Shown here: piece by piece, positions 3,755 to 47,574 of the stretch
How the letters are laid out: each line of letters starts with the position of its first letter
Position numbering within the stretch: the stretch's first letter is position 1
Assembly (NCBI GenBank): GCA_040877915.1
Contig: JBBDNA010000006.1
Location: 26,993-90,992 of the forward strand
Direction of reading: 5' to 3'
DNA length: 64,000 bases
DNA from: Dehalococcoidia bacterium
GTDB taxonomy: Bacteria > Chloroflexota > Dehalococcoidia > SM23-28-2 > RBG-16-64-32
Program-made: the position numbers and the translations under genes
The notes under the pieces: generated by a model
The model's input: the letters and a program-made list of their open reading frames with translations, nothing else
Database searches by the model: none
Told to the model about the DNA's origin: nothing

Positions 3755-3761
3755 GGGAAAG

Positions 3762-4712: not shown

Positions 4713-4720
4713 GAGGCCGC

Positions 4721-5152
4721 TTGTCCACGATACCCAAGGCCGGGAGACACGTCCTGCCGGAGGTGCTCCGTTCGCCCAGCCTGCCCGCGCTCCTCATCAT
4801 CTGCGCCATGGCCATCGGCGGCGCCGCCATCATCCCCCTGGTGGGCTCCAGCGTGACCACTTCCACGAACGGCAACGTCCACCGTCTGGACCAGGACCTG
4901 GCGGACTGGCAAGCGCGAGTGCAGGAACGGGAGCTGGACGTTGCTACCATGGCCGGCCTCAACCGGATAGAGACCGTCGCCAAGAACGACCTCCACATGG
5001 AGGAGCCCAAGGACACGCGCTACGTCGTTGTGCCAGCGCCGCCGCCGGAAGAGCGCCGTTTGCCCAGCCGCTACCTGCCGCCCTCACCGGAAGACCGTGA
5101 ATCGGAGCCCGCGCTGTGGCAGCGGGTGCGGGACTGGCTACCTCTGCCGTAG
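4721..5152 (+). CDS. ftsL: Cell division protein FtsL-like (single-pass, coiled-coil)
   Basis: 143 aa with one TM (LPALLIICAMAIGGAAIIPLV) then a heptad-like region. Call rests on its position between rsmH and ftsI; sequence similarity is weak. Confidence 0.55.
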   Translation: MSTIPKAGRHVLPEVLRSPSLPALLIICAMAIGGAAIIPLVGSSVTTSTNGNVHRLDQDLADWQARVQERELDVATMAGLNRIETVAKNDLHMEEPKDTRYVVVPAPPPEERRLPSRYLPPSPEDRESEPALWQRVRDWLPLP

Positions 5153-5164
5153 GAATGGACTGAC

Positions 5165-20014: not shown

Positions 20015-21166
20015 ATGCCGAAACTGCAACTGCCACCCTGGCTGGCCGGCAACCCCCGCCGACAGGCCGTCGCCGGCGGCGCCGGAGTCCTCGCCCTCAT
20101 CCTCATCCTCGCCACCCTCACCGTCGGCGGCGTCTTTTCCGAGAGCTCGGACAGGGTCCTGTCCGTCGTCGCCACGCCGACGCCCACGCCTGCCCCACCC
20201 ACTCCCACCCCCACTCCTACGCCGGCGCCCAGCGAGCCCACGCGGCTGAACGGCCGCCTGGTTTACCCCGAGGAGCTGGCCGCGATCGAGGCCAGGCTGC
20301 CCCTGGCCATAATGTTCGACAACTTCATCGAGGCGCGGCCGCAGCACAACATATCGCAGGCCGACATCGTATTCGAGGTCGTCGCCGAGGGCGGCATCAC
20401 CCGCTTCCTCGGCGTTTTCTGGTCGAACGACCCGGGTCCGGTGCTGGCCGTGCGCTCCGCCCGCGCCTACTACCTGCCCTGGGCGGCCGAGGTGGACGGC
20501 ATCTACGTCCACTGGGGCCGCGCCAAATCTACCAACGCCGCCGCCGACGTTACGTCGACCCTTGAATCGCTGGGCCTGCGCCACTACGACGGCTTCTTCT
20601 CCGGCCCGCCCTACTTCGATCGCGCCCTCGACCGCCTCGGCCCCCACGACGGCATCGCCTACACGGACGCGCTCTGGCAGGCGGCGGAGGGCGACGGCTG
20701 GAGCGGCCCGCCGGAGTTCGAGTCCTGGCCGTTCAAGGACGACGAGCCGCGCGCCGGCGGCGAGGACGCCGCCCCGACTATCGACGTCGGCTTCGGCGGG
20801 CCGTTCTTCTCCGACTACGCCGTCACCTGGACGTACGACGCCGAGACCAACGGCTACGCGCGCAGCCAGGGCGGCTTCGAGCACGTGGACGGGACGACGG
20901 GCGAGACGATAGAGGCTCGCAACGTGGCGGTCATGGTGACGTCCGCCGCCGCCGCCGGCGACGGCACCGCCCACCTGGTGTACGACACCACCGGCAGCGG
21001 CGACGCTGTCGTCTTCCAGGACGGCGTGGCGATCCCCGGCACGTGGGCCAAGGAGGGGCCGTACGCCCGCACCCGCTTCTACGACGCCGCCGGCAACGAG
21101 ATCGCCTTCAACCGCGGCCACACCTGGATCGAAGTGCTCTCCTACGACGATCCTCTCTCGTACTAG
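20015..21166 (+). CDS. DUF3048-family secreted/lipoprotein (YerB-like) with Thr/Pro linker
   Basis: Signal-anchor (VLALILILATLTVGG), a PTPTPAPPTPTPTPTPAP linker, and the DUF3048 core motifs IMFDNFIEARPQHNISQADIVFEVVAEGGITRFLGVF. Confidence 0.6.
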   Translation: MPKLQLPPWLAGNPRRQAVAGGAGVLALILILATLTVGGVFSESSDRVLSVVATPTPTPAPPTPTPTPTPAPSEPTRLNGRLVYPEELAAIEARLPLAIMFDNFIEARPQHNISQADIVFEVVAEGGITRFLGVFWSNDPGPVLAVRSARAYYLPWAAEVDGIYVHWGRAKSTNAAADVTSTLESLGLRHYDGFFSGPPYFDRALDRLGPHDGIAYTDALWQAAEGDGWSGPPEFESWPFKDDEPRAGGEDAAPTIDVGFGGPFFSDYAVTWTYDAETNGYARSQGGFEHVDGTTGETIEARNVAVMVTSAAAAGDGTAHLVYDTTGSGDAVVFQDGVAIPGTWAKEGPYARTRFYDAAGNEIAFNRGHTWIEVLSYDDPLSY

Positions 21167-21488
21167 CCACAGATAGACACAGATTCTACACAGATTAGGT
21201 TCGTGTGGACTCGGTGTCGCTGCTGGTTGATGGCGGTGCAGGGATGCTGAACCTGTGCCCCGTCTGAGTGCATCTGTGGCGATACCTCCTATCCGCTGTC
21301 ATGGCGGGGTGGGAGGGATTCTCTGTGTCTCATCTGTGTGCATCTGTGGCAATTCCGGCGACCCGCTGTCGTAGGCGTCTTGCCACTGTCCACTGTCCAC
21401 TGTCCACTCCCCCGTGTTCCCTGTTCCCTACTCCTTGCTCTTCTCGCCTTCGTGACGCATTTCACCACTAAATGTTGTGTCTCCCCCC

Positions 21489-21517
21489 TTGACAACCCCT
21501 ACATGTAGTGCTATCTT
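21489..21517 (+). promoter_or_regulatory. Putative nrdR promoter with extended -10
   Basis: TTGACA 21489..21494, a 17-nt spacer whose last bases are TGc (21509..21511), then TATCTT at 21512..21517. It lies about 250 nt upstream of nrdR, followed by a GC hairpin (CGCCCCCT-cgctga-AGGGGGCG) at 21525..21546. Confidence 0.4.
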
Positions 21518-21765: not shown

Positions 21766-22359
21766 GTGAACTGCCCCTTCTGCGCCAGCCCCGACACCCG
21801 CGTCATCGACTCGCGGCCGGACGAAGCGGGCATCCGCCGCCGCCGCGAGTGCCTGGCCTGCGAGCAGCGCTTCACCACTTTCGAGAAGATCGAGCTGGGC
21901 TCCGTCGCCATCGTCAAGAAGGACGACTCGCGCGAGGAGTTCGACCGCGGCAAGATCCTGTCCGGCCTGCGCAAGGCCTGCGACAAGCGGCCCATCCCCT
22001 CCGGCGCCATCGAGGCGATCGCCGATGCCATCGAGCGCGCGGTGTACGCCCAGAACAAGGCCGAGGTCCCCTCGTCCTACATCGGCGAGCTTGTGATGGA
22101 GCGGCTGCGCGAGCTGGACCACATCGCCTACATCCGCTTCGCCTCCGTGTACCGCGCCTTCGCCGACGTTGACGAGCTGGAGCAGGAGCTGGAGGCGCTG
22201 AAGGCGGGCTGGCGCCGCCCCGACGTGCCGCGCGACCAGATGGCGCTGCTGCCGGAGGCCGAGGGCAAGGCGCCGAAGCCGCGGCTGCTGCGCGTGCGCC
22301 GCCAGAAGGACGGTCAGGACGCCCGGAGCCCTAAGGCCCGTCTGGGGAGAGCGCAGTGA
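21766..22359 (+). CDS. nrdR: Transcriptional repressor NrdR (Zn-ribbon + ATP-cone) with ~45-aa C-terminal extension
   Basis: MNCPFCASPDTRVIDSRPDEAGIRRRRECLACEQRFTTFE Zn ribbon, then an ATP cone (VIKKDDSREEFDRGKILSGL...AYIRFASVYRAF). GTG start with a GGAAGG RBS. Confidence 0.9.
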   Translation: MNCPFCASPDTRVIDSRPDEAGIRRRRECLACEQRFTTFEKIELGSVAIVKKDDSREEFDRGKILSGLRKACDKRPIPSGAIEAIADAIERAVYAQNKAEVPSSYIGELVMERLRELDHIAYIRFASVYRAFADVDELEQELEALKAGWRRPDVPRDQMALLPEAEGKAPKPRLLRVRRQKDGQDARSPKARLGRAQ

Positions 22360-22925: not shown

Positions 22926-23453
22926 GTGATGAGTTCGCACTGTTTCGGCGCCCGCGTCTACGTGATCCGGCACTACGCATTGCGCTGGTCGAGGGACAAG
23001 CTGGCCCGAAAGTTGGTCGAGCGTGGCCATCGGTTACCGCTCGACGATAGTCTAGAACTACGCGAGGTCACGCGCGACGAAATCAAGCGCTGGGAACGCG
23101 GTGAATCCGAACCGTCGTACGTAACAAAGCGGCATGTGGCTATCGTGCTAAGGATACGCCACGAGATTCTGGATCCCGAAGAGCATCCAGGCGACATTTC
23201 GCCTGAGGGTCTCGTAGCCCTCGCCCGAGCTCGCGGACTCACACCTCCGCAGATAAACCAGTATTGGACACTCACGAAGCAGCGTGCGCTATTCAAAGGC
23301 AATCCCGGAATCGGCGAATGGATCTCGATAATCGAACAACTCAGTATTGCAGAGCAGGGCACGCTGTTCACTAGCGGGACTTGGTGCACGCACTGCGGTG
23401 GCTGGATCGAAGACGGCGACGCCGAGTGCCCGGACTGCGGGAACATAGAATGA
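22926..23453 (+). CDS. XRE-family HTH protein with C-terminal CxxC...CxxC zinc ribbon (CapH/DdrO-like candidate)
   Basis: HTH_XRE-like LARKLVERGH...EVTRDEIKRWERGESEPS. The C-terminus carries CTHCGGWIEDGDAECPDCG. Lower GC (~57%) than its flanks. ATGA overlap with the downstream peptidase gene. Confidence 0.55.
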   Translation: MMSSHCFGARVYVIRHYALRWSRDKLARKLVERGHRLPLDDSLELREVTRDEIKRWERGESEPSYVTKRHVAIVLRIRHEILDPEEHPGDISPEGLVALARARGLTPPQINQYWTLTKQRALFKGNPGIGEWISIIEQLSIAEQGTLFTSGTWCTHCGGWIEDGDAECPDCGNIE

Positions 23454-24238
23454 CACAACCCGAACTGCCTCTTCGGAATATGCCAGCGCACCGACCGGCA
23501 AAGGAGGCAGCCCTTGAACGCGCCCGCCAGATCCTGAGGGAATCTGGCATTGACGGACCCCCGGTCGACATCGAGCGCGTGGCCCGTCTAATGGGCACTG
23601 TCGCTGTCGAGGAAGCCAGGCTTGGCGATGTGGCTGCTTGTCTCCTCCCAGGAACGAGAGGCCATACGATTCTGATTAACCGGCGATCACACCCGCTCAG
23701 ACAACGGTTTTCCATAGCACATGAGATCGGTCATCTCATCCTCGGTGCTCGTGGAATTCGTTTCCGAGACATGCGGACGGGACCTGCTGAAAGGTTGTGT
23801 GATGAGCTCGCGGCGGAGCTACTCATGCCCCACGAGATATTTACCCGCGAGATGGACGCCAAGCCGGTATCCCTTGATACCATCTGCGATCTAGCCAACA
23901 CCTTTCAGACGGCGCTAGAGCCTGCCGCTATCCGTTTCGGCGCTCTTGTGTCGGCTCCGGTCCAGGTTGTGTATTGGGAGAAGGTCGAGGATCACCTTCG
24001 CATCAAGTGGACGAATGGAAAGCCAATGCTACCCCGCACTGCCACTATGGGCCTCTTGACCGACCGGGCATTCGGTCCTGCAGAGGCGTTCAATTCCGAT
24101 AGTGAGGAAGGGGTCACGACTTACGCACATTCTTCGCGCTCGAAAAGCCTCGACCTGATCTGCGAATCCAAAGGCTTCAGAGAGCGCCCGTACAGATATG
24201 TTCTGTCTTTGGTTCGCAGGGAAGTAGTGCACGGCTAG
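23450..24238 (+). CDS. ImmA/IrrE-family (COG2856, DUF955) zinc metallopeptidase
   Basis: HExxH motif SIAHEIGHLIL with downstream E (ELLMPHE). Start trimmed to ATG 23450, which overlaps the HTH gene stop. A classic XRE-HTH + ImmA pair. It ends 14 nt before nrdJ. Confidence 0.75.
   Translation: MTQPELPLRNMPAHRPAKEAALERARQILRESGIDGPPVDIERVARLMGTVAVEEARLGDVAACLLPGTRGHTILINRRSHPLRQRFSIAHEIGHLILGARGIRFRDMRTGPAERLCDELAAELLMPHEIFTREMDAKPVSLDTICDLANTFQTALEPAAIRFGALVSAPVQVVYWEKVEDHLRIKWTNGKPMLPRTATMGLLTDRAFGPAEAFNSDSEEGVTTYAHSSRSKSLDLICESKGFRERPYRYVLSLVRREVVHG
24192..24206 (+). promoter_or_regulatory. Palindrome ACAGA-TATGT-TCTGT upstream of nrdJ (candidate NrdR-box-like operator)
   Basis: A perfect 5-bp inverted repeat around an AT-rich core that contains the -10-like TATGTT, about 45 nt upstream of the nrdJ GTG. 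It resembles the ACAC/GTGT-armed NrdR box with one change per arm. Confidence 0.35.
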
Positions 24239-24251: not shown

Positions 24252-27119
24252 GTGACCATCACCCGACCAGACACCCGAACCCGACGACAGGCCAAGAACG
24301 GCGCCCACAAGCCGGCCGCCACCAACGGCAAGCACGCCCCGGCCCTCCGACAGCGCGAGCGGCTCATCCAGCGCCGCTTCACGACGCCGGAGGTCGACCC
24401 CTACGACGCGCTGGCGTGGGAGCTGCGCACCGCCGTCATCCAGGGCTCCGACGGCACGCCCGTTTTCGAGCAGAAGGACGTCGAGTTCCCCGTCGGCTGG
24501 TCGCAGAACGCGACGAACGTCGTCGCCTCCAAGTACTTCCGCGGCCCCCTCAGCGATTCGGCGGCGGCAGCGCCCGGTCGCAACGCGCCCGTGCGCGAGC
24601 GCTCCGTGAAGACGCTGATCGACCGCATCATCGACAACATCACGCGCTGGGGCCGCGAGGGCGGCTACTTCGCCGACGAAGACGAAGCCGCCGCCTTCCG
24701 CGACGAGTTGAAGCACATCCTGGTCAACCAGGTCGCCTGCTTCAACTCGCCCGTCTGGTTCAACCTCGGCATCGAGGAGAAGCCCCAGTGCTCCGCCTGC
24801 TTCATCCTGGCCATCGATGACGAGATGGACAGCATCCTGGAGTGGTACCGCACCGAAGGCAAGATCTTCAAGGGCGGCTCCGGCTCCGGCATCAACCTCT
24901 CGAACCTGCGCTCGTCCAGGGAGCGGCTGACCGCGGGCGGGCTGGCCTCGGGGCCGGTGTCGTTCATGCGCGGGGCGGACGCCATCGCCGGCACGATCAA
25001 GTCCGGCGGCAAGACCCGTCGCGCCGCCAAGATGGTCATCCTCGACGCCGGCCACCCGGACATCGAAGAGTTCATCGACTGCAAGGCGAAGGAGGAGCGC
25101 AAGGCCTACGCCCTGGGCGAGGCCGGCTACGACGTGACGCTGGACGGCGACGCCTGGATCTCCATCCAGTACCAGAACGCCAACAACTCCGTCCGCGTGG
25201 CCGACGACTTCATGCGCGCCTACGAGGAGGACGGCGAGTGGCAGACCCGCTACGTCACCAACGGCGAGCCGGCCAACACCTACCGCGCCCGCGAGCTGAT
25301 GCGTCGCATCGCCCAGGCGGCCTGGGAGTGCGCCGACCCCGGCATGCAGTACCACACCACGATCAACGACTGGCACACCTGCCCCAACACCGGGCCGATC
25401 ACCGCCTCCAACCCCTGCTCCGAGTACATGCACCTCGACAACTCCGCCTGCAACCTGGCCTCGATAAACCTGCTGAAGTTCCTCCGGGAGGAACAAGGGG
25501 AAGCGGAGGGCGGTCCTGTTCCTGGTACCTTGAACCCTGTTCCTGGCGTCGATGTCGGGGCCTACTTCGACATCGACGCCTATAGGCACACCTGCGGGGT
25601 CATGATCACGGCCCAGGAGATCATCGTCTCCAACTCCTCCTACCCGACCGAGAAGATCGCGAAGAACGCGGAGGACTACCGGCAGCTGGGGCTGGGCTAC
25701 TCCAACCTGGGCGCACTGCTGATGTCGCTGGGCACCCCGTACGACTCGGACGAGGGCCGCGCCCTGGCCGCCGCCCTCACCGCCGTCATGACCGGCCAGG
25801 CCTACGCCACCTCCGCCGCCATCGCCGCCCGCGTCGGGCCGTTCAAAGGCTACGAGCTGAACCGCGAGCCAATGCTGCGCGTCATCGAGAAGCACCGCGC
25901 CGCCACGAGCGAGATCGACGATGCGGAGGCCCCCCCTCCGCTCGTGGCGGCGGCCCGCCAGGCCTGGGACGAGGCGCTGGCCCTCGGGCAAGAGTACGGC
26001 TATCGAAACTCGCAGGCGACGGTCCTCGCGCCCACGGGCACGATCAGCTTCATGATGGACTGCGACACGACGGGTATCGAGCCGGATATCGCCCTGATCA
26101 AGTACAAGAACCTGGTCGGCGGCGGCCTGATGAAGATCGTCAACTCCTCGGTGCCGCGCGCCCTGCACGGGCTCGGCTACGACGAACAGGCGTCGGAGGC
26201 CATCCTGGCCCACATAGACGAGACCGGTACCATCGAGGGCGCGCCCGGCCTCCTCGACGAGCACCTCCCGGTGTTCGACTGCGCGTTCAAGCCGCAGAAC
26301 GGCGTGCGCACGGTCCACTGGACGGGTCACGTGCGGATGATGGGCGCGGTGCAGCCGTTCATTTCCGGCGCCATCTCCAAGACCGTCAACCTGCCGGAGG
26401 ATGCCAGCGTCGAGGAGATCGAGGAGGCGTACTACGAGGGCTGGCGGCACGGGCTGAAGGCGCTGGCCATCTACCGCGACGGCTCCAAGCGGGCGCAGGT
26501 CCTGAGCACGAGCAAGGACGGCGACGCGAAGGCCAAGGACGAGCCTGCGGGCCACCCGGTGCGACGCCGCCTCCCGGCGACCCGGACGTCGCTCACCCAC
26601 AAGTTCGCGATCGAGGGGCACGAGGGGTACATCACGGCCGGTCTGTACGAGGACGGCTCGCCGGGCGAGATCTTCGTGACGATGGCCAAAGAGGGGTCGA
26701 CGCTGTCCGGCATGCTGGACGCCTTCGCCACCTCCATCTCGCTGACGCTGCAGTACGGCGTGCCGCTGCACGACATGGTGAACAAGTTCTCGCACATGCG
26801 GTTCGAGCCATCGGGGCGGACGGAGAACGCCGAGATACCGGTGGCCCAGTCGATCGTCGACTACATCTTCCGCTGGCTGGCCTCGCAGTTCATGAGCGAG
26901 GAGGAGAAGGAGCAGTTCGGAGTGCTATCGCCGGCGGTGAAGGCGAAGATGATGGCGGCGGAGTACGGGACGCCCCCGGCGCTGGCCGGCAACGGCGCCA
27001 GCTACAACAACTCGGGGCAGACGGACGCGCCGCCCTGCGCCAGCTGCGGCTGGATCATGGTGCGCTGCGGCACCTGCTACCGCTGCGACAACTGCGGCAC
27101 GACGAGCGGCTGCGGCTAG
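24252..27119 (+). CDS. nrdJ: Class II (adenosylcobalamin-dependent) ribonucleotide reductase, long form (955 aa)
   Basis: Large RNR catalytic core (NSVRVADDFM, LAPTGTISFMMDCDTTGIEP, ISKTVNLP), a C-terminal CASCGW...CGTCYRCDNCG zinc ribbon, no nrdB/nrdF partner, nrdR upstream. GGAGG RBS then GTG. Confidence 0.85.
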   Translation: MTITRPDTRTRRQAKNGAHKPAATNGKHAPALRQRERLIQRRFTTPEVDPYDALAWELRTAVIQGSDGTPVFEQKDVEFPVGWSQNATNVVASKYFRGPLSDSAAAAPGRNAPVRERSVKTLIDRIIDNITRWGREGGYFADEDEAAAFRDELKHILVNQVACFNSPVWFNLGIEEKPQCSACFILAIDDEMDSILEWYRTEGKIFKGGSGSGINLSNLRSSRERLTAGGLASGPVSFMRGADAIAGTIKSGGKTRRAAKMVILDAGHPDIEEFIDCKAKEERKAYALGEAGYDVTLDGDAWISIQYQNANNSVRVADDFMRAYEEDGEWQTRYVTNGEPANTYRARELMRRIAQAAWECADPGMQYHTTINDWHTCPNTGPITASNPCSEYMHLDNSACNLASINLLKFLREEQGEAEGGPVPGTLNPVPGVDVGAYFDIDAYRHTCGVMITAQEIIVSNSSYPTEKIAKNAEDYRQLGLGYSNLGALLMSLGTPYDSDEGRALAAALTAVMTGQAYATSAAIAARVGPFKGYELNREPMLRVIEKHRAATSEIDDAEAPPPLVAAARQAWDEALALGQEYGYRNSQATVLAPTGTISFMMDCDTTGIEPDIALIKYKNLVGGGLMKIVNSSVPRALHGLGYDEQASEAILAHIDETGTIEGAPGLLDEHLPVFDCAFKPQNGVRTVHWTGHVRMMGAVQPFISGAISKTVNLPEDASVEEIEEAYYEGWRHGLKALAIYRDGSKRAQVLSTSKDGDAKAKDEPAGHPVRRRLPATRTSLTHKFAIEGHEGYITAGLYEDGSPGEIFVTMAKEGSTLSGMLDAFATSISLTLQYGVPLHDMVNKFSHMRFEPSGRTENAEIPVAQSIVDYIFRWLASQFMSEEEKEQFGVLSPAVKAKMMAAEYGTPPALAGNGASYNNSGQTDAPPCASCGWIMVRCGTCYRCDNCGTTSGCG

Positions 27120-27291: not shown

Positions 27292-27852
27292 ATGAAGACA
27301 CTCATGGCACTGGCCCTCGCAGTTGGCGCGCTCATTCTCGTCGCCTGCTCGAGCGAAGGGGGCGGGCCAGCATTCGTCAGAGTGTCTGAAGGCACGTTGA
27401 AGCCCGGAAACGAAATCCCCGCGCCCACAGGTGACCCGGTCGTCACGCTCTCTGGCGAGGTCACACCGAACGTGGGCGACAGCCTGGAATTCGACAGGGA
27501 GACGATTGAGAGCATCGGCCTTATCGAATACACGGTCGACGACCCCTGGGAGAACGCCAGCGTGACCTACACCGGCGTCCTCCTCTCCGATCTGCTGGAG
27601 GTGGCCGGCGCGCCGTCCTCCGCGAGCGCCATCCACCTGGTGGCGCTCGACGATTACGCGGCTGACATCAGCCTGGCCGATGTCGAACGGCTGCCGATAA
27701 TGCTCGCCACCCGCTCCGACGGCGAGTACATGGAGGTCGTGGACGGCGGCCCCACCCGGATCGTCTACCCGTATCACGCCTATCCGGACCTGGAAGACGC
27801 CGCGACGAACGATCTCTGGGTATGGAGCATCGCCCGGATAGAGGTGCCATGA
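27292..27852 (+). CDS. Lipoprotein with molybdopterin-oxidoreductase-like (Oxidored_molyb-fold) domain
   Basis: Lipobox LILVAC-SS, then GVLLSDLLEVAG...ALDDYAADISLADV...LATRSDGEYM...GGPTRIVYPY, the pattern of YedY/sulfite-oxidase-fold periplasmic domains. GGAGG RBS. Confidence 0.5.
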   Translation: MKTLMALALAVGALILVACSSEGGGPAFVRVSEGTLKPGNEIPAPTGDPVVTLSGEVTPNVGDSLEFDRETIESIGLIEYTVDDPWENASVTYTGVLLSDLLEVAGAPSSASAIHLVALDDYAADISLADVERLPIMLATRSDGEYMEVVDGGPTRIVYPYHAYPDLEDAATNDLWVWSIARIEVP

Positions 27853-30617
27853 GCCAGGAGATCCCTCTAAGGCGGCGCCGCCTCTCTCCGGCGCAGATCG
27901 TCCTCATCGCGGCGATCAGCGTCCTGGTGAGCGCCATCGCCGTGCTCGCCGTCCGCGCCTCCTCCCAGCTTAGCGGCACCGCCCGCGAGTTTGAGAACAC
28001 CGGCATTGTTACGACTAACATGGCTAACATCCAGCGTGAGCTGCTCCTGCTGGAGATAGAGTCGGAGCGGTTCGTCCACGGGCCCTCCGATGACCCCGCT
28101 CCAGTCGAGCTGCCCCGCAGCCTCCTGGCGAACCAGCTGCGCCGGGCCCAGATCCGCGCCGAGGACGACGGCGAGCTAAGGGGCGCGCTCTCCGACATTC
28201 AGAAAACGCTGGGCCGGTATGACGTAGAGCTAGCCGGGTTCTCCGCGGCCGGTACGCCGGAGGAGGCTGAGGCGAGCCACGAAGCGCTGGAGGCGACCCT
28301 GGCCTCGGCCGAGGAGCAGGTCAAGGCCCTCTACGATAAAGAGGAAGGCCAATTCTTCAGCGCCGTGAGCGCCGGCATCAGCGCGCAGCGGGCATCCCAC
28401 AGGCTCCTGCTGGTAGGCGGCGGAGTCTTGCTGGCCGTCAGCTTGGGCCTCGTCGTCTCTCTCGGCCGCAGCGTCAGCAGCGACTTCAAGCGAGCCTACC
28501 ACCGGGTCCAGGAGGAGCTCTCGCAACGGGAGCGGGCCCTGGCGGAGCTGGGGCGAAAGGAAGAGGAGTTCCGGACGCTGGCCAGCGTCTCTCCGGCCCT
28601 GATCTTCCGGGCCGACAGCGAGGGGAATTGCACCTATGTGAACGAGCGGTGGAGGGAGTTTTCCGGCCTGTCCCGGGGAGCGGCTCTGGGCAGGGGCTGG
28701 GCGGCCGCGCTCCACCCGGAGGACAGGGACCGGGTCATTGCCCAGTTTCTAGAGGCGGCAGAGAAGAGCGCCGTATGGCAGACGGAGTACCGCTTCGTTC
28801 GGCCGGACGGCAGCTGCGCCTGGGTAAAGGGAGCGGCAGCGCCCCAGAAGTCGGAGGACGGCTCCGTCGCCGGATACGTCGGTACCCTCCTGGACATCAC
28901 GGAAAGCAAGGCGGCCGAGCAAGCGATTCGTGAGAGCGAGGAGCGCTTCCGCCAGCTGTTGAACCAGGCCGCGGACGCTATCTTCGTAACCGACGCGCAA
29001 GGAAGGTTCGTCGACGTCAACGAGGCCGCCTGTCAGAGCCTGGGCTACACGCGCGAGGAACTGGTCACGATGACGGTGCAAGACATAGCCGACCCGCAGG
29101 TATATGCGAATGCGCGGGAGGCCCTTGCCGGCGGCGCCACGGCTACGATCGAGACGGACGAGCGCCGGAAGGATGGCTCCACTGTGCCCGTTGAAGTCCG
29201 GATCAGGTACATCCAGAGCCGTGGCCAGCGCTTCGGGCTGGCCATCGCCCGCGACGTCAGCGAGCGCAAGGAGAGCGAGGCCGCCCTGCAACGAGCGAAC
29301 CAGGAGCTGGAAGACGACCGGCGAGAGATAAAGGCCCTCAACCGCTCGCTGGAGGAGAAGGTCCGGCAGCGCACAGCCGAGCTTGAGGTCTCCAACCGCG
29401 AGCTCCGGGAGCGCAACCGGGAGCTGACGGACGTCCGTGTTCTGGCCGCGACCGACGCGCTTACCGGCTTGCCCAATCACCGCGCCTTCCACGAGACCAT
29501 CCGCAAGATCACCGAGGAGACGGAAGGCGCAGGCGCGCCCCTGAGCCTGCTGATGCTGGATATCGATGGGTTCAAGCGCATCAACGACTCGCAGGGCCAC
29601 CTGGTGGGCGATCAGGTCCTGCGCGAGATCGCGGCCAGCCTCACGCGGCACGTTACACGGGACCGCGCCTATCGCTACGGCGGCGACGAGTTCGCCGTCA
29701 TATTGCCGCGCACAGGCCGCCTCGAGGCCCTGCGCGTCGCCGATCGCATCCGCCGCTCGGTCGACCGCCAGGTCAGAGTCGACGGCCGCGGCGTCACCAT
29801 CAGCCTGGGCGCGGCGGCCTACCCGGAGTCCGCCGGCTCCGCCGAGGAGCTGATCTACGGCGCCGACGCGGCGATGTACTGGGCCAAATCCGCCGGCAAG
29901 AACCGCGTGGGCGACTGGAGCAAGCTCATCCGCAGGCGCGATGAGGACGCCACGCCCTGGTACGTGGGCGATCGCGCCGTCAGAGCCCCCGACGCCGTGG
30001 CCGCGCTCGTCGCCGCGCTCACGGCCAAGGACCCCAGCACGAGCGCGCACACCGACCGTTGCTCCTGGTACTCGGCGCAGCTCGCGCGGACGCTGGGCCT
30101 CAGTGAAGAGGAGATATCGACGATCCGCCTCGCCTCCCTGCTGCACGACGTCGGCAAGATAGGCGTGCCGGACGAGATCCTGTTCAAACCGGGGCCCCTG
30201 AACGAGGATGAGTGGGCCGAGATGAAGAAGCACCCGGCGGCCGCTCTACACGTCCTGCGAGAGGTCCGGGCCATCACGGACGCCACTCCCGCCATCCTTC
30301 ACCACCACGAGCACTTCGACGGCTCCGGCTACCCCGACGGGCTGAAGGGCGAGAATATCCCCATCGCCTCACGGATACTGCTGGTAACGGACGCCTTTGA
30401 CGCCATGACCACTGACCGGCCCTACCGAAAGGCGATGCCCATCGAGCACGCCATCGGGGAGCTAACGCGTAACAAGGGTAGCCAGTTCGACCCCAGGATC
30501 GTCGACGCCTTCCTCAAGATAATCGAAGGCTCCGGGGTTTACGAGCCGCACTCTCACGAGAGCGATGGCACGCCTTCCGGGGCGCAGCCGTCTCTGGCGG
30601 GGGGGAACGCGGGGTAG
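27849..30617 (+). CDS. Membrane-anchored PAS/PAC - GGDEF - HD-GYP cyclic-di-GMP signalling protein
   Basis: ATGA-coupled to the lipoprotein gene. Has one TM, coiled coils, about three PAS/PAC repeats, an intact GGDEF site (RYGGDEF) and an HD-GYP domain (HDVGKIGVPDEIL...HHHEHFDGSGYP). Confidence 0.85.
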   Translation: MSQEIPLRRRRLSPAQIVLIAAISVLVSAIAVLAVRASSQLSGTAREFENTGIVTTNMANIQRELLLLEIESERFVHGPSDDPAPVELPRSLLANQLRRAQIRAEDDGELRGALSDIQKTLGRYDVELAGFSAAGTPEEAEASHEALEATLASAEEQVKALYDKEEGQFFSAVSAGISAQRASHRLLLVGGGVLLAVSLGLVVSLGRSVSSDFKRAYHRVQEELSQRERALAELGRKEEEFRTLASVSPALIFRADSEGNCTYVNERWREFSGLSRGAALGRGWAAALHPEDRDRVIAQFLEAAEKSAVWQTEYRFVRPDGSCAWVKGAAAPQKSEDGSVAGYVGTLLDITESKAAEQAIRESEERFRQLLNQAADAIFVTDAQGRFVDVNEAACQSLGYTREELVTMTVQDIADPQVYANAREALAGGATATIETDERRKDGSTVPVEVRIRYIQSRGQRFGLAIARDVSERKESEAALQRANQELEDDRREIKALNRSLEEKVRQRTAELEVSNRELRERNRELTDVRVLAATDALTGLPNHRAFHETIRKITEETEGAGAPLSLLMLDIDGFKRINDSQGHLVGDQVLREIAASLTRHVTRDRAYRYGGDEFAVILPRTGRLEALRVADRIRRSVDRQVRVDGRGVTISLGAAAYPESAGSAEELIYGADAAMYWAKSAGKNRVGDWSKLIRRRDEDATPWYVGDRAVRAPDAVAALVAALTAKDPSTSAHTDRCSWYSAQLARTLGLSEEEISTIRLASLLHDVGKIGVPDEILFKPGPLNEDEWAEMKKHPAAALHVLREVRAITDATPAILHHHEHFDGSGYPDGLKGENIPIASRILLVTDAFDAMTTDRPYRKAMPIEHAIGELTRNKGSQFDPRIVDAFLKIIEGSGVYEPHSHESDGTPSGAQPSLAGGNAG

Positions 30618-30627: not shown

Positions 30628-31773
30628 CTAAAGGCGGCGCAGGACGGGCCGCGGCAGCCTGGCCCGCAGGTACTCGGCCAGCGCCTTCACGTAGCGCGCC
30701 CCGCTCTGGCGCACCATGTAGTGGCCGCGCTCGCTGTGCCAGAAGCCGGCGCTGCGGCCTATCTCAGCCAGGATGTCGCCCATCTTCTCCTGCGAGAAGT
30801 CGTCGGCGCTGCGGCACAGCTCCAGGACATCCGGTAGCACCTGGTGCAGGGCGCCGGCCCCCAGCGGCTTCTGGATCACGTATTCCTTCGGATCGTCGAA
30901 CGCGCTTTGCCAGCGCTCCCGCGCCGCCCGCCAGTAGTTGAGCAGCAGCTTCCCCGCTTCCTCGTCCGTCAACCGCTTGACGAAGCCGTCCCGCACAACG
31001 GGGTCCAAAGACGACACCATACTGTGCTGTCGCATCAGGTGGCTGGGGCGCCGCTTCTCGCCCGGCATCAGGATGATCCCGTACCAGGGGCTGGAGGTAT
31101 CGCCGTTGAGGATGTCGCACAGCTTCGTGGCGCGACCGCGCAGGAAGTTCTTCTCCCCTTCCCGCTCCAGCAGCGTCGCCCCCTCGGACTCCAGCATTGT
31201 GAGCAGGTGGCGGTCGACGACGTCCGTGGGCACGCCCTTCTGGCGGGTGTTGATCACGTGGAAGTAGCGCATCTCCTCGTAGGCGTCTATCCCCTCGACG
31301 ATGGTCACCGGCAGGGGGTACTCGCTGAGCCAGCCGGCGTTGTCCTTGGTCAGAGCCATCTGCAGCCCGAACAGCCGGTGCTGGCCGTCCACCAGCCACA
31401 TGTCCACGCTGGCCGGGATCGTCAGCATCCCGGGTTCACCGCTGGCGCCGTCGAAGCCGGCCGGCTCGAAGGTGGCGCGGTCGGGCTGCCGGATGCACAG
31501 CAGCAGCGAGGTTGGCAGCACCCCTTCTTCGTGCCGCATGTAGGAGGACACCTGTCGCAGCCGCGACTGTGTGAGGGGACGCTGGTAGCCCTGCTTGCGG
31601 TCGTGCCTGTACGTATCGGGCCGGCAGCGGCCCAGGAGGTCCCTGAGCGGGAAGACGGCGGCATAGAGGTTGACGTCCGGCCTCTTCTGGCGGAACCGCA
31701 CGGCGAAGGCGCGCAGTACCGTTCGCGCGTCCGTCTGCTGGGTCTGTTGCGCAGCCGAGGTAGGGGATGTCAT
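30628..31773 (-). CDS. DGQHR-domain protein (DndB-like, ParB/Srx-fold) - orphan
   Basis: Motif MWLVDGQHRLFGL plus an upstream GYQRPL, 381 aa. No dndACDE, ssp or pbe partner genes in the window. Divergent from the second nrdJ. Confidence 0.7.
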   Translation of the reverse strand: MTSPTSAAQQTQQTDARTVLRAFAVRFRQKRPDVNLYAAVFPLRDLLGRCRPDTYRHDRKQGYQRPLTQSRLRQVSSYMRHEEGVLPTSLLLCIRQPDRATFEPAGFDGASGEPGMLTIPASVDMWLVDGQHRLFGLQMALTKDNAGWLSEYPLPVTIVEGIDAYEEMRYFHVINTRQKGVPTDVVDRHLLTMLESEGATLLEREGEKNFLRGRATKLCDILNGDTSSPWYGIILMPGEKRRPSHLMRQHSMVSSLDPVVRDGFVKRLTDEEAGKLLLNYWRAARERWQSAFDDPKEYVIQKPLGAGALHQVLPDVLELCRSADDFSQEKMGDILAEIGRSAGFWHSERGHYMVRQSGARYVKALAEYLRARLPRPVLRRL

Positions 31774-31850
31774 AGCCTTCTCCTATATCTGCAAGCGCCT
31801 GTGGTAAACGTCAGGCTGAGCGAGCGATTTTCCTTCTGGGGCGCGGGTTT

Positions 31851-31861
31851 CTGGCAGAATT
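31851..31861 (+). promoter_or_regulatory. Palindrome TTCTGgCAGAA in the DGQHR/nrdJ2 divergent intergenic region
   Basis: Perfect inverted repeat about 20 nt upstream of the extended -10 gTGcTATACT (31881..31886) of nrdJ2. It shares CAGA/TCTG half-sites with the nrdJ1 palindrome. Confidence 0.35.
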
Positions 31862-31899
31862 CCCGTCGACTTGCCGGTGCTATACTTAGGATTGCCACC

Positions 31900-34311
31900 A
31901 TGACTATACGCCAACCGAGCGGCGAGGCCAAGATACCCTTTTCCGAAAACGCCCGCCTTGTCCTGGAGCGGCGCTACCTGGCCAGGGACGCGGACGGACG
32001 GCCCGCTGAGACCCCTGAGCAGATGCTCCGCCGCGTCGCCCACAACGTGGCCCAGGCCGAGCGTTCTTACAAGCCGCTCGAGGCTATCGACGACGCCGCG
32101 CGCTGGGAAGAGCGCTTCTACGAGCTGATGGCGCGGCTGGAGTTCCTCCCCAACTCGCCGACCTTGATGAACGCCGGCCGCGAGCTGCAGCAGCTCTCCG
32201 CCTGCTTCGTGCTCCCCGTCCCCGATAGCATCGAGGGCATATTCCAGGCGATCAAGGACACCGCCCGCATCCACCAGTCCGGTGGCGGCACCGGCTTCGC
32301 CTTCTCCCGTCTGCGGCCCGAAGGCGACCGCGTCCAATCGACGATGGGCGTGGCCTCCGGACCGGTCTCGTTCATCAAGGTGTTCGACGCCGCTACCGAG
32401 GCCATCAAGCAAGGCGGTACCCGCCGCGGCGCCAACATGGGCATCCTGGCCGTAACCCACCCCGACATCGAGAAGTTCATCACGCTCAAGAGCGACATGC
32501 GCACGCTCACCAACTTCAACATCTCCGTGGCCCTGACCGAGGAGTTCATGACCGCCGTGGAAGAGGACCGCGAGTACGAGCTGGTGAACCCCCGCAGCGG
32601 CGAGAGCGCCGGCCAGCGCCGCGCCCGCCACGTCTTCGACCTGCTGGTGGCCAACGCCTGGCGCAACGGCGACCCCGGCATCGTGTTTATCGACCGCATC
32701 AACCGCGACAACCCTACCCCAAACGTTGGCGAGATCGAGGCTACGAACCCCTGCGGCGAGCAGCCGCTGCTCCCCTACGAGTCCTGCAACCTCGGCTCCC
32801 TCAACCTCGCCAGGTTCGTCCGCGGCAACGGCTCGAAGAGCAAGCTCGACTGGAAGCGCCTCGCCGAGGTCATCCCCCAGTGCGTCCGCTTCCTCGACGA
32901 CGTCATCGACGTCAACCGCTACCCGATCGAGGAGATCGACCAGGCCACGAAGCTCACCCGCAAGATCGGCCTGGGCGTGATGGGCTGGCACGACGCCCTC
33001 CTCCAGCTCGGCGTGCCCTACGACTCCGAGGAGGCGCTGGCCCTGGGCGAGGAGGTGATGCGCTTCGTCCAGGAGAAGGCCAACGAGGCGTCGCTGGACC
33101 TAGGCCGCGAGCGCGGGACCTTCCTCGCCTTCGAAGGCTCCCGCTACGACCCGCACAACCCCTACCGCAACTCGACGCGCACCACCGTCGCCCCCACCGG
33201 CACGCTGTCCATCATCGCCGCCTGCTCGTCGGGCATCGAGCCGCTGTTCTCGCTCGCCTACACCCGCCGCCACTACCTCGACCCCGACGACCCCTCGAAG
33301 CTCACGGAGCTGACCGAGGCCAACGAGCACTTCGTCCGCGTCGCGAAGGCCGAGGGGTTTTACTCCGACGACCTGATGCAGCAGCTGGCGGCCGGCGGCA
33401 GCCTGCGCGACCGCGACGACGTCCCCGACGCCGCCAAGCGGCTGTTCGTCACCGCGCACGACATCTCGCCGGAGTGGCACGTGCGCATGCAGGCCGCCTT
33501 CCAGCGCCACACCGATAACGCCGTCTCCAAGACGATCAACTTCCCCTTCGCCGCCACAGAGGCCGACGTGGCCTCCGCCTACTGGCTGGCCTTCCGCGAG
33601 GGCTGCAAGGGGATGACGATCTACCGCGAGGGCTCCCGCCCGTTCTCGGTGCTGTCGCACGCGGCGCTGAACGTCAAGGGCCCGGAGCAGGAGACCGAAG
33701 AGGCGCTGGCCGAGATCGAGGGGATCATCGCCACGACGGAGCGGCCGCGCCCCTACCGCCAGCACCTCCCCGACGAGCGGCGTTCGATCACGCACAAGTT
33801 CCGCGTCGGCGACCAGGAGGGGTACATCACCGCCGGCCTGTACGAGGACGGCCGCCCGGGCGAGATCTTCGTGAAGATCGCCAAGGAGGGGTCGACGGTG
33901 TCGGGGCTGATGGACGCCGTGGCCCTGCTGACCTCCGTGACGCTGCAGTACGGCGTGCCGGTGCAGGACCTGGCCCGCAAGCTGAAGAACACCCGCTTCG
34001 AGCCCTACGGCCGCACCAACAACCCGGACATCCCCTGGGCGACCTCGGTCGTCGACTACGTGTTCCGCTGGCTGGAGCGCAAGTTCTCGCCGGAGACCGC
34101 CGGCGCCGACGCCTCCGCCCACCCAGCACCCCCGCTCGCCCTGAGCGAGTCGAAGGGCCGAGCCAACCCCGCTCACCCTGAGCCTGTCGAAGGGGGAGCG
34201 GGGCGACGCGCCGAGGCCACCGGCCTGGGCTGCCCGGACTGCGGCGCCCTGCTGGTGTACCAGGAGGGGTGCCTGGTCTGCCGCTCCTGCGGCTTCAACA
34301 AGTGCGGGTAG
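31900..34311 (+). CDS. nrdJ: Class II (adenosylcobalamin-dependent) ribonucleotide reductase, short paralog (803 aa)
   Basis: Start trimmed to ATG 31900 (MTIRQPSGEAKIPFSENARLVLERRYL). The ORF-track N-extension overlaps the DGQHR gene on the opposite strand. The core is paralogous to 24252..27119 and carries a C-terminal CPDCGALLVYQEGCLVCRSCGFNKCG zinc ribbon. Confidence 0.85.
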   Translation: MTIRQPSGEAKIPFSENARLVLERRYLARDADGRPAETPEQMLRRVAHNVAQAERSYKPLEAIDDAARWEERFYELMARLEFLPNSPTLMNAGRELQQLSACFVLPVPDSIEGIFQAIKDTARIHQSGGGTGFAFSRLRPEGDRVQSTMGVASGPVSFIKVFDAATEAIKQGGTRRGANMGILAVTHPDIEKFITLKSDMRTLTNFNISVALTEEFMTAVEEDREYELVNPRSGESAGQRRARHVFDLLVANAWRNGDPGIVFIDRINRDNPTPNVGEIEATNPCGEQPLLPYESCNLGSLNLARFVRGNGSKSKLDWKRLAEVIPQCVRFLDDVIDVNRYPIEEIDQATKLTRKIGLGVMGWHDALLQLGVPYDSEEALALGEEVMRFVQEKANEASLDLGRERGTFLAFEGSRYDPHNPYRNSTRTTVAPTGTLSIIAACSSGIEPLFSLAYTRRHYLDPDDPSKLTELTEANEHFVRVAKAEGFYSDDLMQQLAAGGSLRDRDDVPDAAKRLFVTAHDISPEWHVRMQAAFQRHTDNAVSKTINFPFAATEADVASAYWLAFREGCKGMTIYREGSRPFSVLSHAALNVKGPEQETEEALAEIEGIIATTERPRPYRQHLPDERRSITHKFRVGDQEGYITAGLYEDGRPGEIFVKIAKEGSTVSGLMDAVALLTSVTLQYGVPVQDLARKLKNTRFEPYGRTNNPDIPWATSVVDYVFRWLERKFSPETAGADASAHPAPPLALSESKGRANPAHPEPVEGGAGRRAEATGLGCPDCGALLVYQEGCLVCRSCGFNKCG

Positions 34312-34390: not shown

Positions 34391-35383
34391 ATGATCGAAA
34401 GACTCGAAGGGTTTGCCCTCCTAGACCTCATGAGGAAATTGCCTGAGCAGTCGAAGTATGACTGCAAGAGAGATCTTACTCTCGACAGCCACGACCGAAA
34501 GGCGGAGCTGATCAAAGACATCACCAGTATCGCGAACGCGCACGGAGACGAGGTGGGCTACCTTTTCTTCGGTGTTGATCCAGTAAGTAGCGAACTCGCG
34601 GTTGGTATCACCCAGCGCCATGACGACGCGACTCTTCAGCAAATAGTGAATTCGAAACTGGAGCGGCCCGTCTCCTTCCTGTACTACGAAACTGAGGTGA
34701 ACGGTAGCTGGGTGGGAGTAGCTGTGATTCCGCCGAGTATCACCCGTCCGCACATCATTAAGGCGCAGTACGGGAGGCTTCGCGCGGGTCAGATTCCCAT
34801 ACGCAGGGGCTCAAGCACGACGTGGGCAACCAGCGAGGACCTCCAACTGATGCTGGAACGCCAGCGTGCTCGGGAGTCCCAAGGTCAGGATATAGCTGAA
34901 CTCGTGCGAAGAGCCGGGGATCCCGCTGTGCCCGTGGCACAACTTGCTCTCGAAGTATGGCAGCTAGGATCGCAGGTCGCGCCGCCCGAACATCTTGAAT
35001 GGCTACGCCTGGAAATCGCTGGGTTCAAGACGGGAAGCGTGGTGCCTGATTACCGTGAAGTAGCCGGCCACGTCTCTGTCTTTGAAATAAATCTGAAAGC
35101 ACTGTCCTTCCACAATCTCGATTCCATCGTTCAGACTGAGCCAGATAAATTCAAGGAGGTGCCCCTGAGACTAGGGCAGTCAATCGCTGAGCTAGAGGAC
35201 ATGCTCGGCCCTGATGGATCGGGCCAGGGCGCGGGATTTTTCCAGACTCGGCGTCAGTTCGAGACGCAGAACGGGGAGGCTGTGGAGGCATACCTCTACT
35301 TCAAGCCTAGTGCTGTCAGACGAGTCGTCACATTGATAAGGAATCGCATTGCGCGTTTCCTTATGACGCTTCATGCAAGTTAA
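34391..35383 (+). CDS. AlbA_2 / Schlafen-like divergent AAA-ATPase-fold domain protein (low-GC)
   Basis: DITSIANAHGDEVGYLFFGVDPVSSELAVGI fits the AlbA_2 (PF04326) core (AFANt.GGyliiGVdd). GC about 52% vs about 68% elsewhere. C-terminal half has no recognisable domain. Confidence 0.5.
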   Translation: MIERLEGFALLDLMRKLPEQSKYDCKRDLTLDSHDRKAELIKDITSIANAHGDEVGYLFFGVDPVSSELAVGITQRHDDATLQQIVNSKLERPVSFLYYETEVNGSWVGVAVIPPSITRPHIIKAQYGRLRAGQIPIRRGSSTTWATSEDLQLMLERQRARESQGQDIAELVRRAGDPAVPVAQLALEVWQLGSQVAPPEHLEWLRLEIAGFKTGSVVPDYREVAGHVSVFEINLKALSFHNLDSIVQTEPDKFKEVPLRLGQSIAELEDMLGPDGSGQGAGFFQTRRQFETQNGEAVEAYLYFKPSAVRRVVTLIRNRIARFLMTLHAS

Positions 35384-39262: not shown

Positions 39263-40192
39263 CTACCCGTCGGCGTAGCGCCGGGCCAGCGACTCCGCCT
39301 CGACGCGTACACGCTCCACGGCCTGCGGCGGCGACAGCACCCGCGCCGAGGTGCCCCAGCTCAGCACCCAGGGCAGCAGCCGGCGCTCGTCCCAGCGCCT
39401 GAATACGAACACGGAGCCGCCTTCGCCCGGCTCCTCCCGCTCCAGTGCGTAGGACGGCGATTCGCGAGCCCAGGGCACGGCCGCCGCCTCGATCCAGACG
39501 CGCACCTCGGGGCCCCAGCGCTCGTGGTCGTGGCCGTCGAAGCCGACGGTCGCCCGTCGCTCGAACCCTTCGTCCAGCAGCTGCGCCCTCCGGACGCGCC
39601 CGACCCGGAAGTCGCGGACGCCCTCTCGCAGGCGGCAGTGGCCGACGAGGTGCCAGTCGTTCTCGTAATACAGGAGGTAGTGCGGCTCTACCTGCCGCTC
39701 TGTGATCTCGTCGGAGCCGAAGGAGTGGTAACGCAGGTGCAACACCCGCTCCCGCAGGACTGCCTGCTGGAGCACGGGCAGCCAGGGCGAGGGTTCGCGC
39801 TTCTCCCACGAGGACACTCGTATGCGGTCGCGCAGGCGGTCGACGGCCTGCCGCGTCTCCGGGCGCAGGACGGCCTCGACTTTCGCCGCCGCCGAGCGCG
39901 TGGCCTCGCGGTCCGCGGCCGTGCCCATGCCGAGCGCCAGGTCGCTACCCAGCAGCAGCTGCACCGCCTCTTCGGCGGTCAGGGCCACCGGCGGCAGGTG
40001 GTATCCGGGCACCAGGCGGTAGCCCTCGCCAGGCAGCGCCGCCACCGGCACCCCCGCCTGGCAGAGAGCATCGATGTCGCGGTACACCGTCCGCACCGAG
40101 CAGCCGCACTCCTGCGCCAGATCGGCGGCGCGGAGCGGCGTCTCTTCACGGAGGCGCATCAGGATCAGCAGCCGCCTGTCCATCTGTTTCAT
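39263..40192 (-). CDS. WYL-domain transcriptional regulator (HTH + WYL + C-terminal extension; YafY/PafBC-like)
   Basis: Trimmed to ATG 40192. N-terminal HTH_11 (LLILMRLREETPLRAADLAQECGCSVRTVYRDIDAL), a central WYL region (HYLLYYENDWHLVGHC) and a C-terminal WCX-like tail. Divergent from yggS. Confidence 0.7.
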   Translation of the reverse strand: MKQMDRRLLILMRLREETPLRAADLAQECGCSVRTVYRDIDALCQAGVPVAALPGEGYRLVPGYHLPPVALTAEEAVQLLLGSDLALGMGTAADREATRSAAAKVEAVLRPETRQAVDRLRDRIRVSSWEKREPSPWLPVLQQAVLRERVLHLRYHSFGSDEITERQVEPHYLLYYENDWHLVGHCRLREGVRDFRVGRVRRAQLLDEGFERRATVGFDGHDHERWGPEVRVWIEAAAVPWARESPSYALEREEPGEGGSVFVFRRWDERRLLPWVLSWGTSARVLSPPQAVERVRVEAESLARRYADG

Positions 40193-40254
40193 AGCTGGCT
40201 CACGTGTGCCGGGGCCAGGCAATTATACAACCCGCCGTTGCTATACTGGCAGCG

Positions 40255-47404: not shown

Positions 47405-47480
47405 GGCCCCGTGGTGTAGCGGTTAACATGCCAGCTTGTCAAGCTGGAGATCGTCGGTTCGAATCCGATCGGGGTCGCCA
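47405..47480 (+). tRNA. tRNA-Asp (anticodon GTC)
   Basis: Hand-folded cloverleaf: acceptor GGCCCCG/CGGGGTC, D-arm GTGT-AGCGGTTA-ACAT, anticodon stem CCAGC/GCTGG with loop TTGTCAA (GTC), T-arm GTCGG-TTCGAAT-CCGAT, discriminator G, encoded CCA. Confidence 0.85.
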
Positions 47481-47574
47481 GCCGCAAATACGGATCGGCC
47501 CGCCATCCTCCCCTGAAGGCATGCGAGAGAGGGGCGAAGGCGGGCTTTGGTATCAGCCCAGGAGGCGCGAGCAC

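Follow-up and report, generated by a model that had tools for sequence, protein, structure and literature searches.

The 64,000-nt window analysed here, a stretch of one contig of a Dehalococcoidia bacterium (assembly GCA_040877915.1, contig JBBDNA010000006.1, positions 26,993 to 90,992), carries a gene for a 381-aa DGQHR-domain protein (DndB-like, putatively of the ParB/Srx fold; 30628..31773, minus strand), assigned from its open reading frame (ORF) and the TIGR03187 profile. This gene lies back to back with nrdJ2 (31900..34311, plus strand), which encodes the second of two class II ribonucleotide reductases (RNRs) at the locus. We found that the two genes form a strictly conserved divergent pair: an nrdJ2 orthologue (71-83% identity) is divergent from the DGQHR gene at a distance of 70-190 bp in 27/27 informative loci. 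We consider it quite possible, and put it forward tentatively, that a domesticated DGQHR protein has split an operon once controlled by NrdR and now regulates nrdJ2 locally, much as DndB does its own targets. The DGQHR domain family is known, and it is the RNR context and the proposed role that are new. In the literature searched, we found nothing linking DGQHR, DndB or ParB-like proteins to RNR, apart from a phage replication module listing both gene types.

The pairing was seen in two surveys. First, a scan anchored on the DGQHR gene, done on contigs of one genome per species, returned 28 loci at 48-82% identity, all from Chloroflexota/Dehalococcoidia metagenome-assembled genomes (MAGs). For the 27/27 count, duplicates were removed and enough upstream DNA was needed; the count includes L032, where the DGQHR gene is shortened at its 5' end, and leaves aside L017 and L013, whose length does not allow a judgement. 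Second, a survey of 80 metagenome loci anchored on nrdJ2 gave five close orthologues, four of which (L041, L042, L043 and L056; nrdJ2 at least 69% identical) also have the DGQHR gene. Overall, the nrdJ2 orthologues found beside a DGQHR gene in relatives are 69-83% identical to that of the window. A preliminary description of this DNA had made its reading depend on the conservation of the synteny, and the pair is indeed kept in both surveys.

The genes around the pair are much less stable. Gene tables for four long related contigs give nrdR, nrdJ1, a variable part (GGDEF, AAA or other genes), and then the DGQHR gene divergent from nrdJ2. On the 3' side of the DGQHR gene we observed a GGDEF-HD-GYP, PAS-GGDEF or GGDEF-EAL protein, an AAA_16 protein, or nrdJ1 directly, so that the PAS-GGDEF-HD-GYP gene of the window is a variable neighbour, replaced in relatives by other GGDEF proteins or by none, with nrdJ1 adjoining. 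On the 3' side of nrdJ2, the neighbour is an AlbA2-AbiTii gene (in the window only), MraZ, an HTH-M78 protein (L003) or cupin/ABM genes. The outer flanks thus turn over between genomes and the DGQHR-nrdJ2 pair stays. The minimal order, with nrdJ1 and nrdJ2 in the same direction and the DGQHR gene reversed between them, occurs in L008, L009, L013 and L029, and looks like the result of an insertion into an nrdJ1-nrdJ2 spacer. Some of the nrdJ2 orthologues also contain inteins: the L003 gene (4285..7809) encodes a 1174-aa product with Intein_splicing and LAGLIDADG_3 domains, and L074 has a 1139-aa intein-containing nrdJ2 ORF (3782..7201) whose homology is split at residue 285. The nrdJ2 of the window has no intein.

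In bacteria, NrdR is thought to be the main control of RNR genes, with Fur, riboswitches and SOS-type inputs as further controls. No homologue of nrdJ2 at 59-66% identity has a DGQHR gene next to it; these homologues are found in nrdR-nrdJ1-nrdJ2 arrays (complete in L047, in part in L046, L049 and L051) or directly after nrdR (L044, L050, L052, L053 and L055), and at about 50% identity nrdR is mostly directly upstream. By searching 1.5 kb upstream for CACTAnATnTwGTG with at most 2 mismatches, we found NrdR-box-like sites in 49/63 non-DGQHR nrdJ loci, compared with 3/63 when the same segments were shuffled. The window has its own nrdR (zinc ribbon plus ATP-cone repressor; 21766..22359, plus strand), identified by tblastn with the NrdR proteins of L003 and L004 (74-75% identity) and from the Pfam domains of the relatives. 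Upstream of it lie tandem NrdR boxes, CACTAAATGTTGTG (21466..21479) and CCCTACATGTAGTG (21497..21510), on the plus strand and 31 bp apart, which flank a TTGACA -35 element; equivalent tandem boxes precede nrdR in L003, L008, L028 and L029. Further along is nrdJ1 (24252..27119, plus strand; 955 aa), a class II RNR of the Ribonuc_red_2_N type by Pfam, with 32% identity to nrdJ2.

In the DGQHR-nrdJ2 spacers, no NrdR box was found at up to 3 mismatches in the window or at up to 2 mismatches in the relatives. NrdR control of nrdJ2 via its own promoter was therefore rejected. The gene orders of the outgroups indicate that the NrdR-linked nrdJ array is ancestral, and the simplest history would be that the DGQHR gene inserted, facing the other way, between nrdJ1 and nrdJ2 of such an NrdR-controlled array. 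A separate observation comes from L049, in a lineage without the DGQHR gene: because a 290-aa protein (4031..4903) sits there between nrdJ1 and nrdJ2, with no similarity to the AbiTii protein of the window, it suggests that this spacer is an insertion hotspot. We also noticed direct repeats upstream of the NrdR boxes of the window (21150..21420), with CCACTGT in tandem about 3-4 times near 21383..21410 and, within the same interval, two copies of GCATCTGTGGC...CCGCTGTC about 70 bp apart.

Then, we examined the protein itself. The codon-position GC of its ORF (GC1/2/3 of 0.67/0.45/0.91) is of the coding type for genes of the window, and a Shine-Dalgarno sequence (GGAGAAGG) lies 5 nt ahead of the ATG. 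The TIGR03187 DGQHR profile matches residues 30-316 (model positions 5-275 of 276) with 125 bits against a cut-off of 58.85, so the 381-aa DGQHR protein announced in the preliminary description stands; the PF14072 DndB profile, which had been named along with TIGR03187, gives 54.5 bits and covers the N-terminal half only. By aligning 41 orthologues, we found no variation at Q64-R65, D129-G130-Q131-H132-R133 and F171/N175, the residues of the QR, DGQHR and F..N motifs; the columns have a mean identity of 74%, and more than 100 positions are invariant. The window protein is 100% identical to the DGQHR protein of a Dehalococcoidia MAG, and, with clustering at the 90% level, full-length orthologues of 66-86% identity make up more than 120 clusters.

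The equivalog models gave a different picture from the general DGQHR profile. DpdB (NF041060) reached 70.5 bits against a cut-off of 300 over residues 35-345 and is the best partial equivalog match, the phosphorothioation-associated DGQHR protein 1 (DGQHR_dnd_1, TIGR04172) reached 45.4 bits against 450, and DndB (TIGR03233) 19 bits against 328; the corresponding PADLOC models scored 68 bits for DpdB and 21 bits for DndB. Because the equivalog models score so far under their cut-offs, the window protein is, by profile, a generic DGQHR protein and not of the DndB, DpdB or Pbe type. This bears on whether it could regulate in trans a phosphorothioation, Ssp, Pbe or Dpd system located elsewhere in the genome, or be a component that survives from one, as the name of the Pfam family and the weak DndB and DpdB matches might suggest. 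No dnd, ssp or dpd gene and no Dcm or HhH-GPD gene was detected among the proteins scanned (about 6.9-50.7 kb of the window) or within 8 kb on either side in four related genomes (L001 and L003-L005), and tblastn of the whole window found no Dcm and no HhH-GPD either. The annotated genes of the window and the same flanks also lack DndC (PAPS-reductase-like), DndD and DndE, as well as any TGT-family (dpdA-like) gene. Moreover, the gene is single-copy, core-like and clade-wide, lies beside the dcw and nrd genes at native GC (0.66-0.68 locally against 0.678 for the whole window), and does not behave as a patchy defence-island gene; its nearest relatives in a neighbour-joining tree, from which DndB and DpdB were left out, are proteins of Dcm cassettes. 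We therefore judge such a link to a distant system extremely unlikely. For the examined DNA, the gene is the orphan of native GC that the preliminary description had made of it, and the trans-regulator or defence-remnant role also raised there found no support, since no dnd, ssp, pbe or dpd gene was found in the annotated parts of the window or beside the gene in relatives.

An AlphaFold2 model (predicted local distance difference test 73.9, predicted template modelling score 0.68) places the motifs in an N-terminal alpha/beta domain (about residues 20-180), followed by a helical C-terminal domain. Foldseek against the PDB returned weak matches only, to the N-domain of pNOB8 ParB, PadC and SspE, and structure matches in BFVD were to DndB-like, GmrSD-N and ParB-like proteins. 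These matches are consistent with the ParB/Srx assignment of the family, without independent proof of the fold. Proteins of the ParB/Srx superfamily have documented NTPase activities. A sequence search of the PDB matched designed Kelch repeats only, which we judged spurious.

The divergent spacer (31774..31899) has in the window the 126 bp reported in the preliminary description, up to the nrdJ2 ATG at 31900, and the homologous spacers of relatives measure 70-190 bp. The 803-aa product of nrdJ2 has, by Pfam, the lgN, barrel and TSCPD parts of a class II RNR, with the NPCGE thiyl-radical motif and a Cys-rich C-terminal tail. From consensus, we assigned a putative nrdJ2 promoter with an extended -10 element, TGcTATACT (31878..31886, plus strand), 13 nt before the ATG. 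All aligned spacers have TATACT, TACAAT or TATAAT, often after TGn, 11-14 nt before the nrdJ2 ATG, and this short distance implies that the nrdJ2 mRNA would be leaderless or have a very short leader. On the other side, TTGTCAAT is found in 12/19 dereplicated spacers and reads, on the DGQHR strand, TTGACA and then TAnnnT after 16-17 nt, so it is likely the DGQHR promoter; the element is degenerate in the window itself, where the sole minus-strand match to a consensus promoter falls inside the first codons of nrdJ2 (31931..31903).

In most subclades, a GTGCCA or GTGACA box keeps a constant distance of 30-32 nt to the -10, on its upstream side, while the rest of the spacer does not align; L074, which has no DGQHR gene, lacks it at that offset. 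This non-palindromic GTG(A/C)CA box is the only candidate for a regulator site; the homologous site of the window is at 31840..31845. Other elements considered for the spacer were set aside. Sigma-54-like TGGCAC and RecA-NDp/PafBC-like TGTCG motifs, seen by eye, were inconsistent in spacing and conservation. The spacer has no Rfam match, and a riboswitch or other RNA element was rejected, as the only Rfam match in the window above the gathering threshold is one tRNA and the nrdJ2 leader is too short.

To place the protein in its family, we used a library clustered at 50% identity, in which the whole RNR-linked orthologue group is reduced to one representative. The next full-length relatives are at 46-37% identity (P0123-P0126 and P0131 among the cassette proteins) and belong to gene cassettes of a recurrent kind. 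An HhH-GPD gene accompanies the DGQHR gene in L034; a C5-methylase gene is followed by two DGQHR genes and an HhH-GPD/HTH gene in L035-L037 (4532..9156 in L035), and by one DGQHR gene and HhH-GPD in L038 (1181..4325). In L123 (347..5838), a MerR-fused C5-methylase gene together with RE_Eco47II is divergent from two DGQHR genes followed by Vsr, YunG and, further on, EVE; L122 matches this layout without a called Vsr gene. In addition, P0257 (1053 aa) joins a UvrD-like superfamily 1 helicase to a C-terminal DGQHR domain. In the neighbour-joining tree (midpoint-rooted, no bootstrap), the RNR-linked clade is monophyletic and long-stemmed, sister to P0123/P0124 and placed among cassette proteins. 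Its position in this tree indicates that the RNR-linked clade originates among DGQHR proteins of methylase/repair cassettes. The word remnant, used in the preliminary description, is thus apt in the evolutionary sense of a clade nested among C5-methylase/HhH-GPD/Vsr cassette proteins and gains no support as a remnant of defence. The cassettes themselves suggest a role of DGQHR proteins in 5-methylcytosine or T:G-repair biology, and no description of the C5-methylase, DGQHR and HhH-GPD/Vsr combination was found in the literature searched. A phage origin of the gene was rejected: the family alignment gave one weak partial match in viral contigs, and the GC is native.

The known protein closest to the role we propose is DndB, which in Salmonella enterica and Streptomyces lividans binds a promoter region and regulates dndCDE and itself (PMC4507180); a later report of ATP modulation of DndB is cited in PMC10853773. 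DndB resembles the window protein in its DGQHR domain, of a family assigned to the ParB/Srx superfamily, in its length of about 360-380 aa and in having the QR, DGQHR and F..N motifs, and its promoter-binding autoregulation is the mode of action proposed here. Unlike DndB, the window protein has no dndCDE or dndA neighbours and adjoins a ribonucleotide reductase rather than a DNA-modification operon; the DndB operator is a TACG-N10-CGTA palindrome, whereas the spacer has no conserved palindrome. The cassette proteins are its closest sequence relatives outside the clade (37-46% full-length identity), but they adjoin a cytosine methylase and a T:G-mismatch-type repair enzyme, often in tandem, while the window gene is single-copy beside nrdJ2. 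With NrdR the likeness is one of functional analogy only, as a nucleotide-binding regulator encoded beside RNR genes, here in the same locus; its fold (zinc ribbon plus ATP-cone) is unrelated, and regulation by the DGQHR protein is hypothetical.

In the explanation we propose, a ParB/Srx-fold DGQHR protein, binding NTPs and DNA, would descend from genes of C5-methylase/T:G-repair cassettes. Its gene would have inserted in reverse orientation into the NrdR-controlled nrdR-nrdJ1-nrdJ2 array of one Dehalococcoidia lineage, separating nrdJ2 from the NrdR-regulated nrdR-nrdJ1 transcript. What remained to nrdJ2 would be a near-leaderless promoter of its own, with an extended -10 and free of NrdR boxes. 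Since then, the gene would have been retained back to back with nrdJ2 under strong purifying selection. The protein would bind the shared spacer and exert, in the manner of DndB, a nucleotide-dependent control of nrdJ2 and probably of its own gene, with the outcome that one RNR would be under NrdR and the other under a different nucleotide-sensing regulator. Spacer binding, regulation of nrdJ2 and nucleotide dependence are all inferred, and the transcription-factor idea, already present in the preliminary description, would be our best guess for the protein. That it is specifically an NTP- or dNTP-gated DNA-binding switch, drawn from a methylation/repair cassette, giving NrdR-independent control of nrdJ2 and forming an independent analogue of NrdR, is possible but doubtful.

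Several points weigh against a regulatory role. First, no operator is established in the spacer. The preliminary description had drawn attention to a perfect palindrome, TTCTGgCAGAA, at 31851..31861 and just upstream of the nrdJ2 -10. The sequence is present, 21 nt upstream of the -10, although at 31849..31859, and its supposed meaning did not hold. A perfect 5+5 palindrome with a central gap of at most 1 arises in 20% of shuffles of the 126-bp spacer, in 32% with gaps of up to 3 and in 47% with gaps of up to 6, and such palindromes occur across the whole window at 0.47 per 126 bp. It is also absent from all relatives' spacers, the closest of which (about 80% protein identity) have GGCGGCAttttGCCGTC at that place. 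Because it is at chance level and missing in relatives, the palindrome is an unconserved chance feature that gives no evidence for an operator and was rejected as one. More broadly, the 19 dereplicated spacers share no dyad or palindrome beyond what shuffles give, and the candidate GTG(A/C)CA box is degenerate both in the nearest relatives of the window (GGCGCA) and in the window itself (GGCGCG). Second, domain profiles detect no helix-turn-helix (HTH) or other classical DNA-binding domain in the protein, and the C-terminal helical domain of the AlphaFold2 model has some low-confidence stretches.

Third, shared descent may suffice to keep two genes adjacent within a clade, since selection acts against insertions into a divergent promoter region that is compact, and all the evidence for the pairing comes from one lineage, of phylum level. 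The pair could then be a frozen accident, in which a single DGQHR gene with an unrelated role inserted at a hotspot and the compact spacer tolerates no more insertions. Other accessory genes do insert around these RNR genes, as seen with the CapH/CapP-like and AlbA2-AbiTii genes of the window, the HTH-M78 protein of L003 and the 290-aa protein of L049. Further, L074 (CACRXD010000001.1), whose nrdJ2 is at 72-78% identity, is the sole close orthologue without an adjoining DGQHR gene: none lies in the 3.8 kb ahead of nrdJ2 or in the 5 kb after it, where the upstream part (1..3800) holds a Rieske dioxygenase alpha/beta pair, RraA-like, DUF488 and PAS-only proteins, and yet the gene keeps the CCGGTGgTATACT -10 region. 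Against an accident stands the strong conservation of the protein, in its column identity, invariant positions and intact motifs. In addition, the pair survives 48-86% protein identity while both outer flanks rearrange repeatedly, and the loss of NrdR boxes at nrdJ2 coincides with the presence of the DGQHR gene. Taking both sides together, we consider a frozen accident unlikely.

Fourth, the wider family looks like a set of DNA-processing components rather than regulators, because of the tandem paralogues encoded next to Dcm with HhH-GPD or Vsr, and because of the fusion to a UvrD-like helicase. DpdB, the best partial equivalog match, is a DNA-stimulated ATPase required by DpdA transglycosylation, not a regulator (PMC10164549). 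Its two-domain layout, a ParB-like NTPase domain and a helical C-terminal domain, is like that of the window protein; it differs by carrying DGQQR (PMC10164549), and no dpdA or dpdC lies near the window gene. The protein could accordingly be read as an NTPase that acts on DNA, serving repair or base modification as a clamp or accessory factor without regulating nrdJ2, and its position would only co-ordinate its expression with that of a dNTP supplier. The nearest outgroups speak for this, with their cassettes of C5-methylase, one or two DGQHR genes and HhH-GPD or of Eco47II-type restriction-modification with two DGQHR genes, Vsr and EVE, and so do the structure matches to NTPase domains of the ParB-N, PadC, SspE and GmrSD-N type. 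However, no methylase, glycosylase, Vsr, TGT-like or Dnd partner was found in the annotated parts of the window or in the flanks of relatives, and this reading leaves the strict divergent pairing with nrdJ2, the only constant neighbour, unexplained. We regard it as rather unlikely.

Another alternative is a nucleotide-pool enzyme, an NTPase or dNTPase of the ParB/Srx type working beside the reductase to trim or sense the (d)NTP pools. It would agree with the NTPase activities of the superfamily, with a genomic partner that makes dNTPs, and with the NTPase or nuclease and nucleotide-degrading roles proposed for DndB-like proteins (PMC10853773). But activity on free nucleotide pools is not known for any DGQHR protein, the contexts of the family are centred on DNA, and there is no operon coupling, the genes being divergent and not co-transcribed. 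We find this alternative very unlikely. Set beside these alternatives, local regulation of nrdJ2 is the reading we retain, tentatively.

The genes scanned around the locus are mostly core genes. Convergent with the DGQHR gene, across a 10-bp gap, is the cyclic di-GMP sensor gene mentioned in the preliminary description (27822..30617, plus strand), which encodes a PAS-PAS-GGDEF-HD-GYP protein by Pfam. Core genes, a dcw cluster (murF ... ftsQ, ftsA, ftsZ), DUF3048 and nrdR lie upstream of the locus, and a WYL regulator, YggS, proC, RNase Y, YmdB, MsrAB, PhoU and PstB downstream. Two low-GC inserts interrupt this background. The first, between nrdR and nrdJ1 (22926..24238, plus strand; GC 0.58-0.59), has two genes and is missing from L003 and L004: one encodes a 175-aa protein without Pfam match, possibly HTH-like and with a Cys-rich C-terminal end, and the other a 262-aa M78 peptidase with HEIGH (Pfam Peptidase_M78; PADLOC CapP, 106 bits) whose gene stops 13 bp short of nrdJ1. 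Pairs of the CapH/CapP and IrrE/DdrO kind form derepression modules set off by DNA damage, so by analogy nrdJ1 may be damage-inducible in the window. The second is a 330-aa Schlafen/AlbA_2 + AbiTii protein gene (34391..35383, plus strand; PADLOC AbiTii and PDC-S50) directly 3' of nrdJ2, in an island of GC 0.56; none of the related loci was found to have a homologue there.

About 5 kb downstream of nrdJ2 is the gene of an HTH_11-WYL-WCX (PafBC-like) regulator (39263..40222, minus strand), and a similar WYL regulator architecture is found at a comparable distance in L004 and L005. PafBC-like regulators control DNA-damage regulons in Actinobacteria. Finally, a tRNA (47405..47477; Rfam, 66.7 bits) overlaps the called start of the ORF of an MsrA-MsrB fusion (47428..48630); the true start must therefore be further downstream, and the PMSR domain begins at residue 99.

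If the DGQHR protein is regulatory, the locus would provide dNTP synthesis with a second nucleotide-responsive switch that evolved independently, and would be a clear case of a defence- or modification-type protein domesticated into core metabolism. Beyond the RNR-linked clade, the outgroup cassettes, in which Dcm, DGQHR and HhH-GPD or Vsr genes stand together, point to an uncharacterised role of the family in 5-methylcytosine biology. Comprising a single protein, about 126 bp of spacer and a single promoter, the DGQHR-nrdJ2 locus is a defined and testable system for the function of orphan DGQHR proteins.

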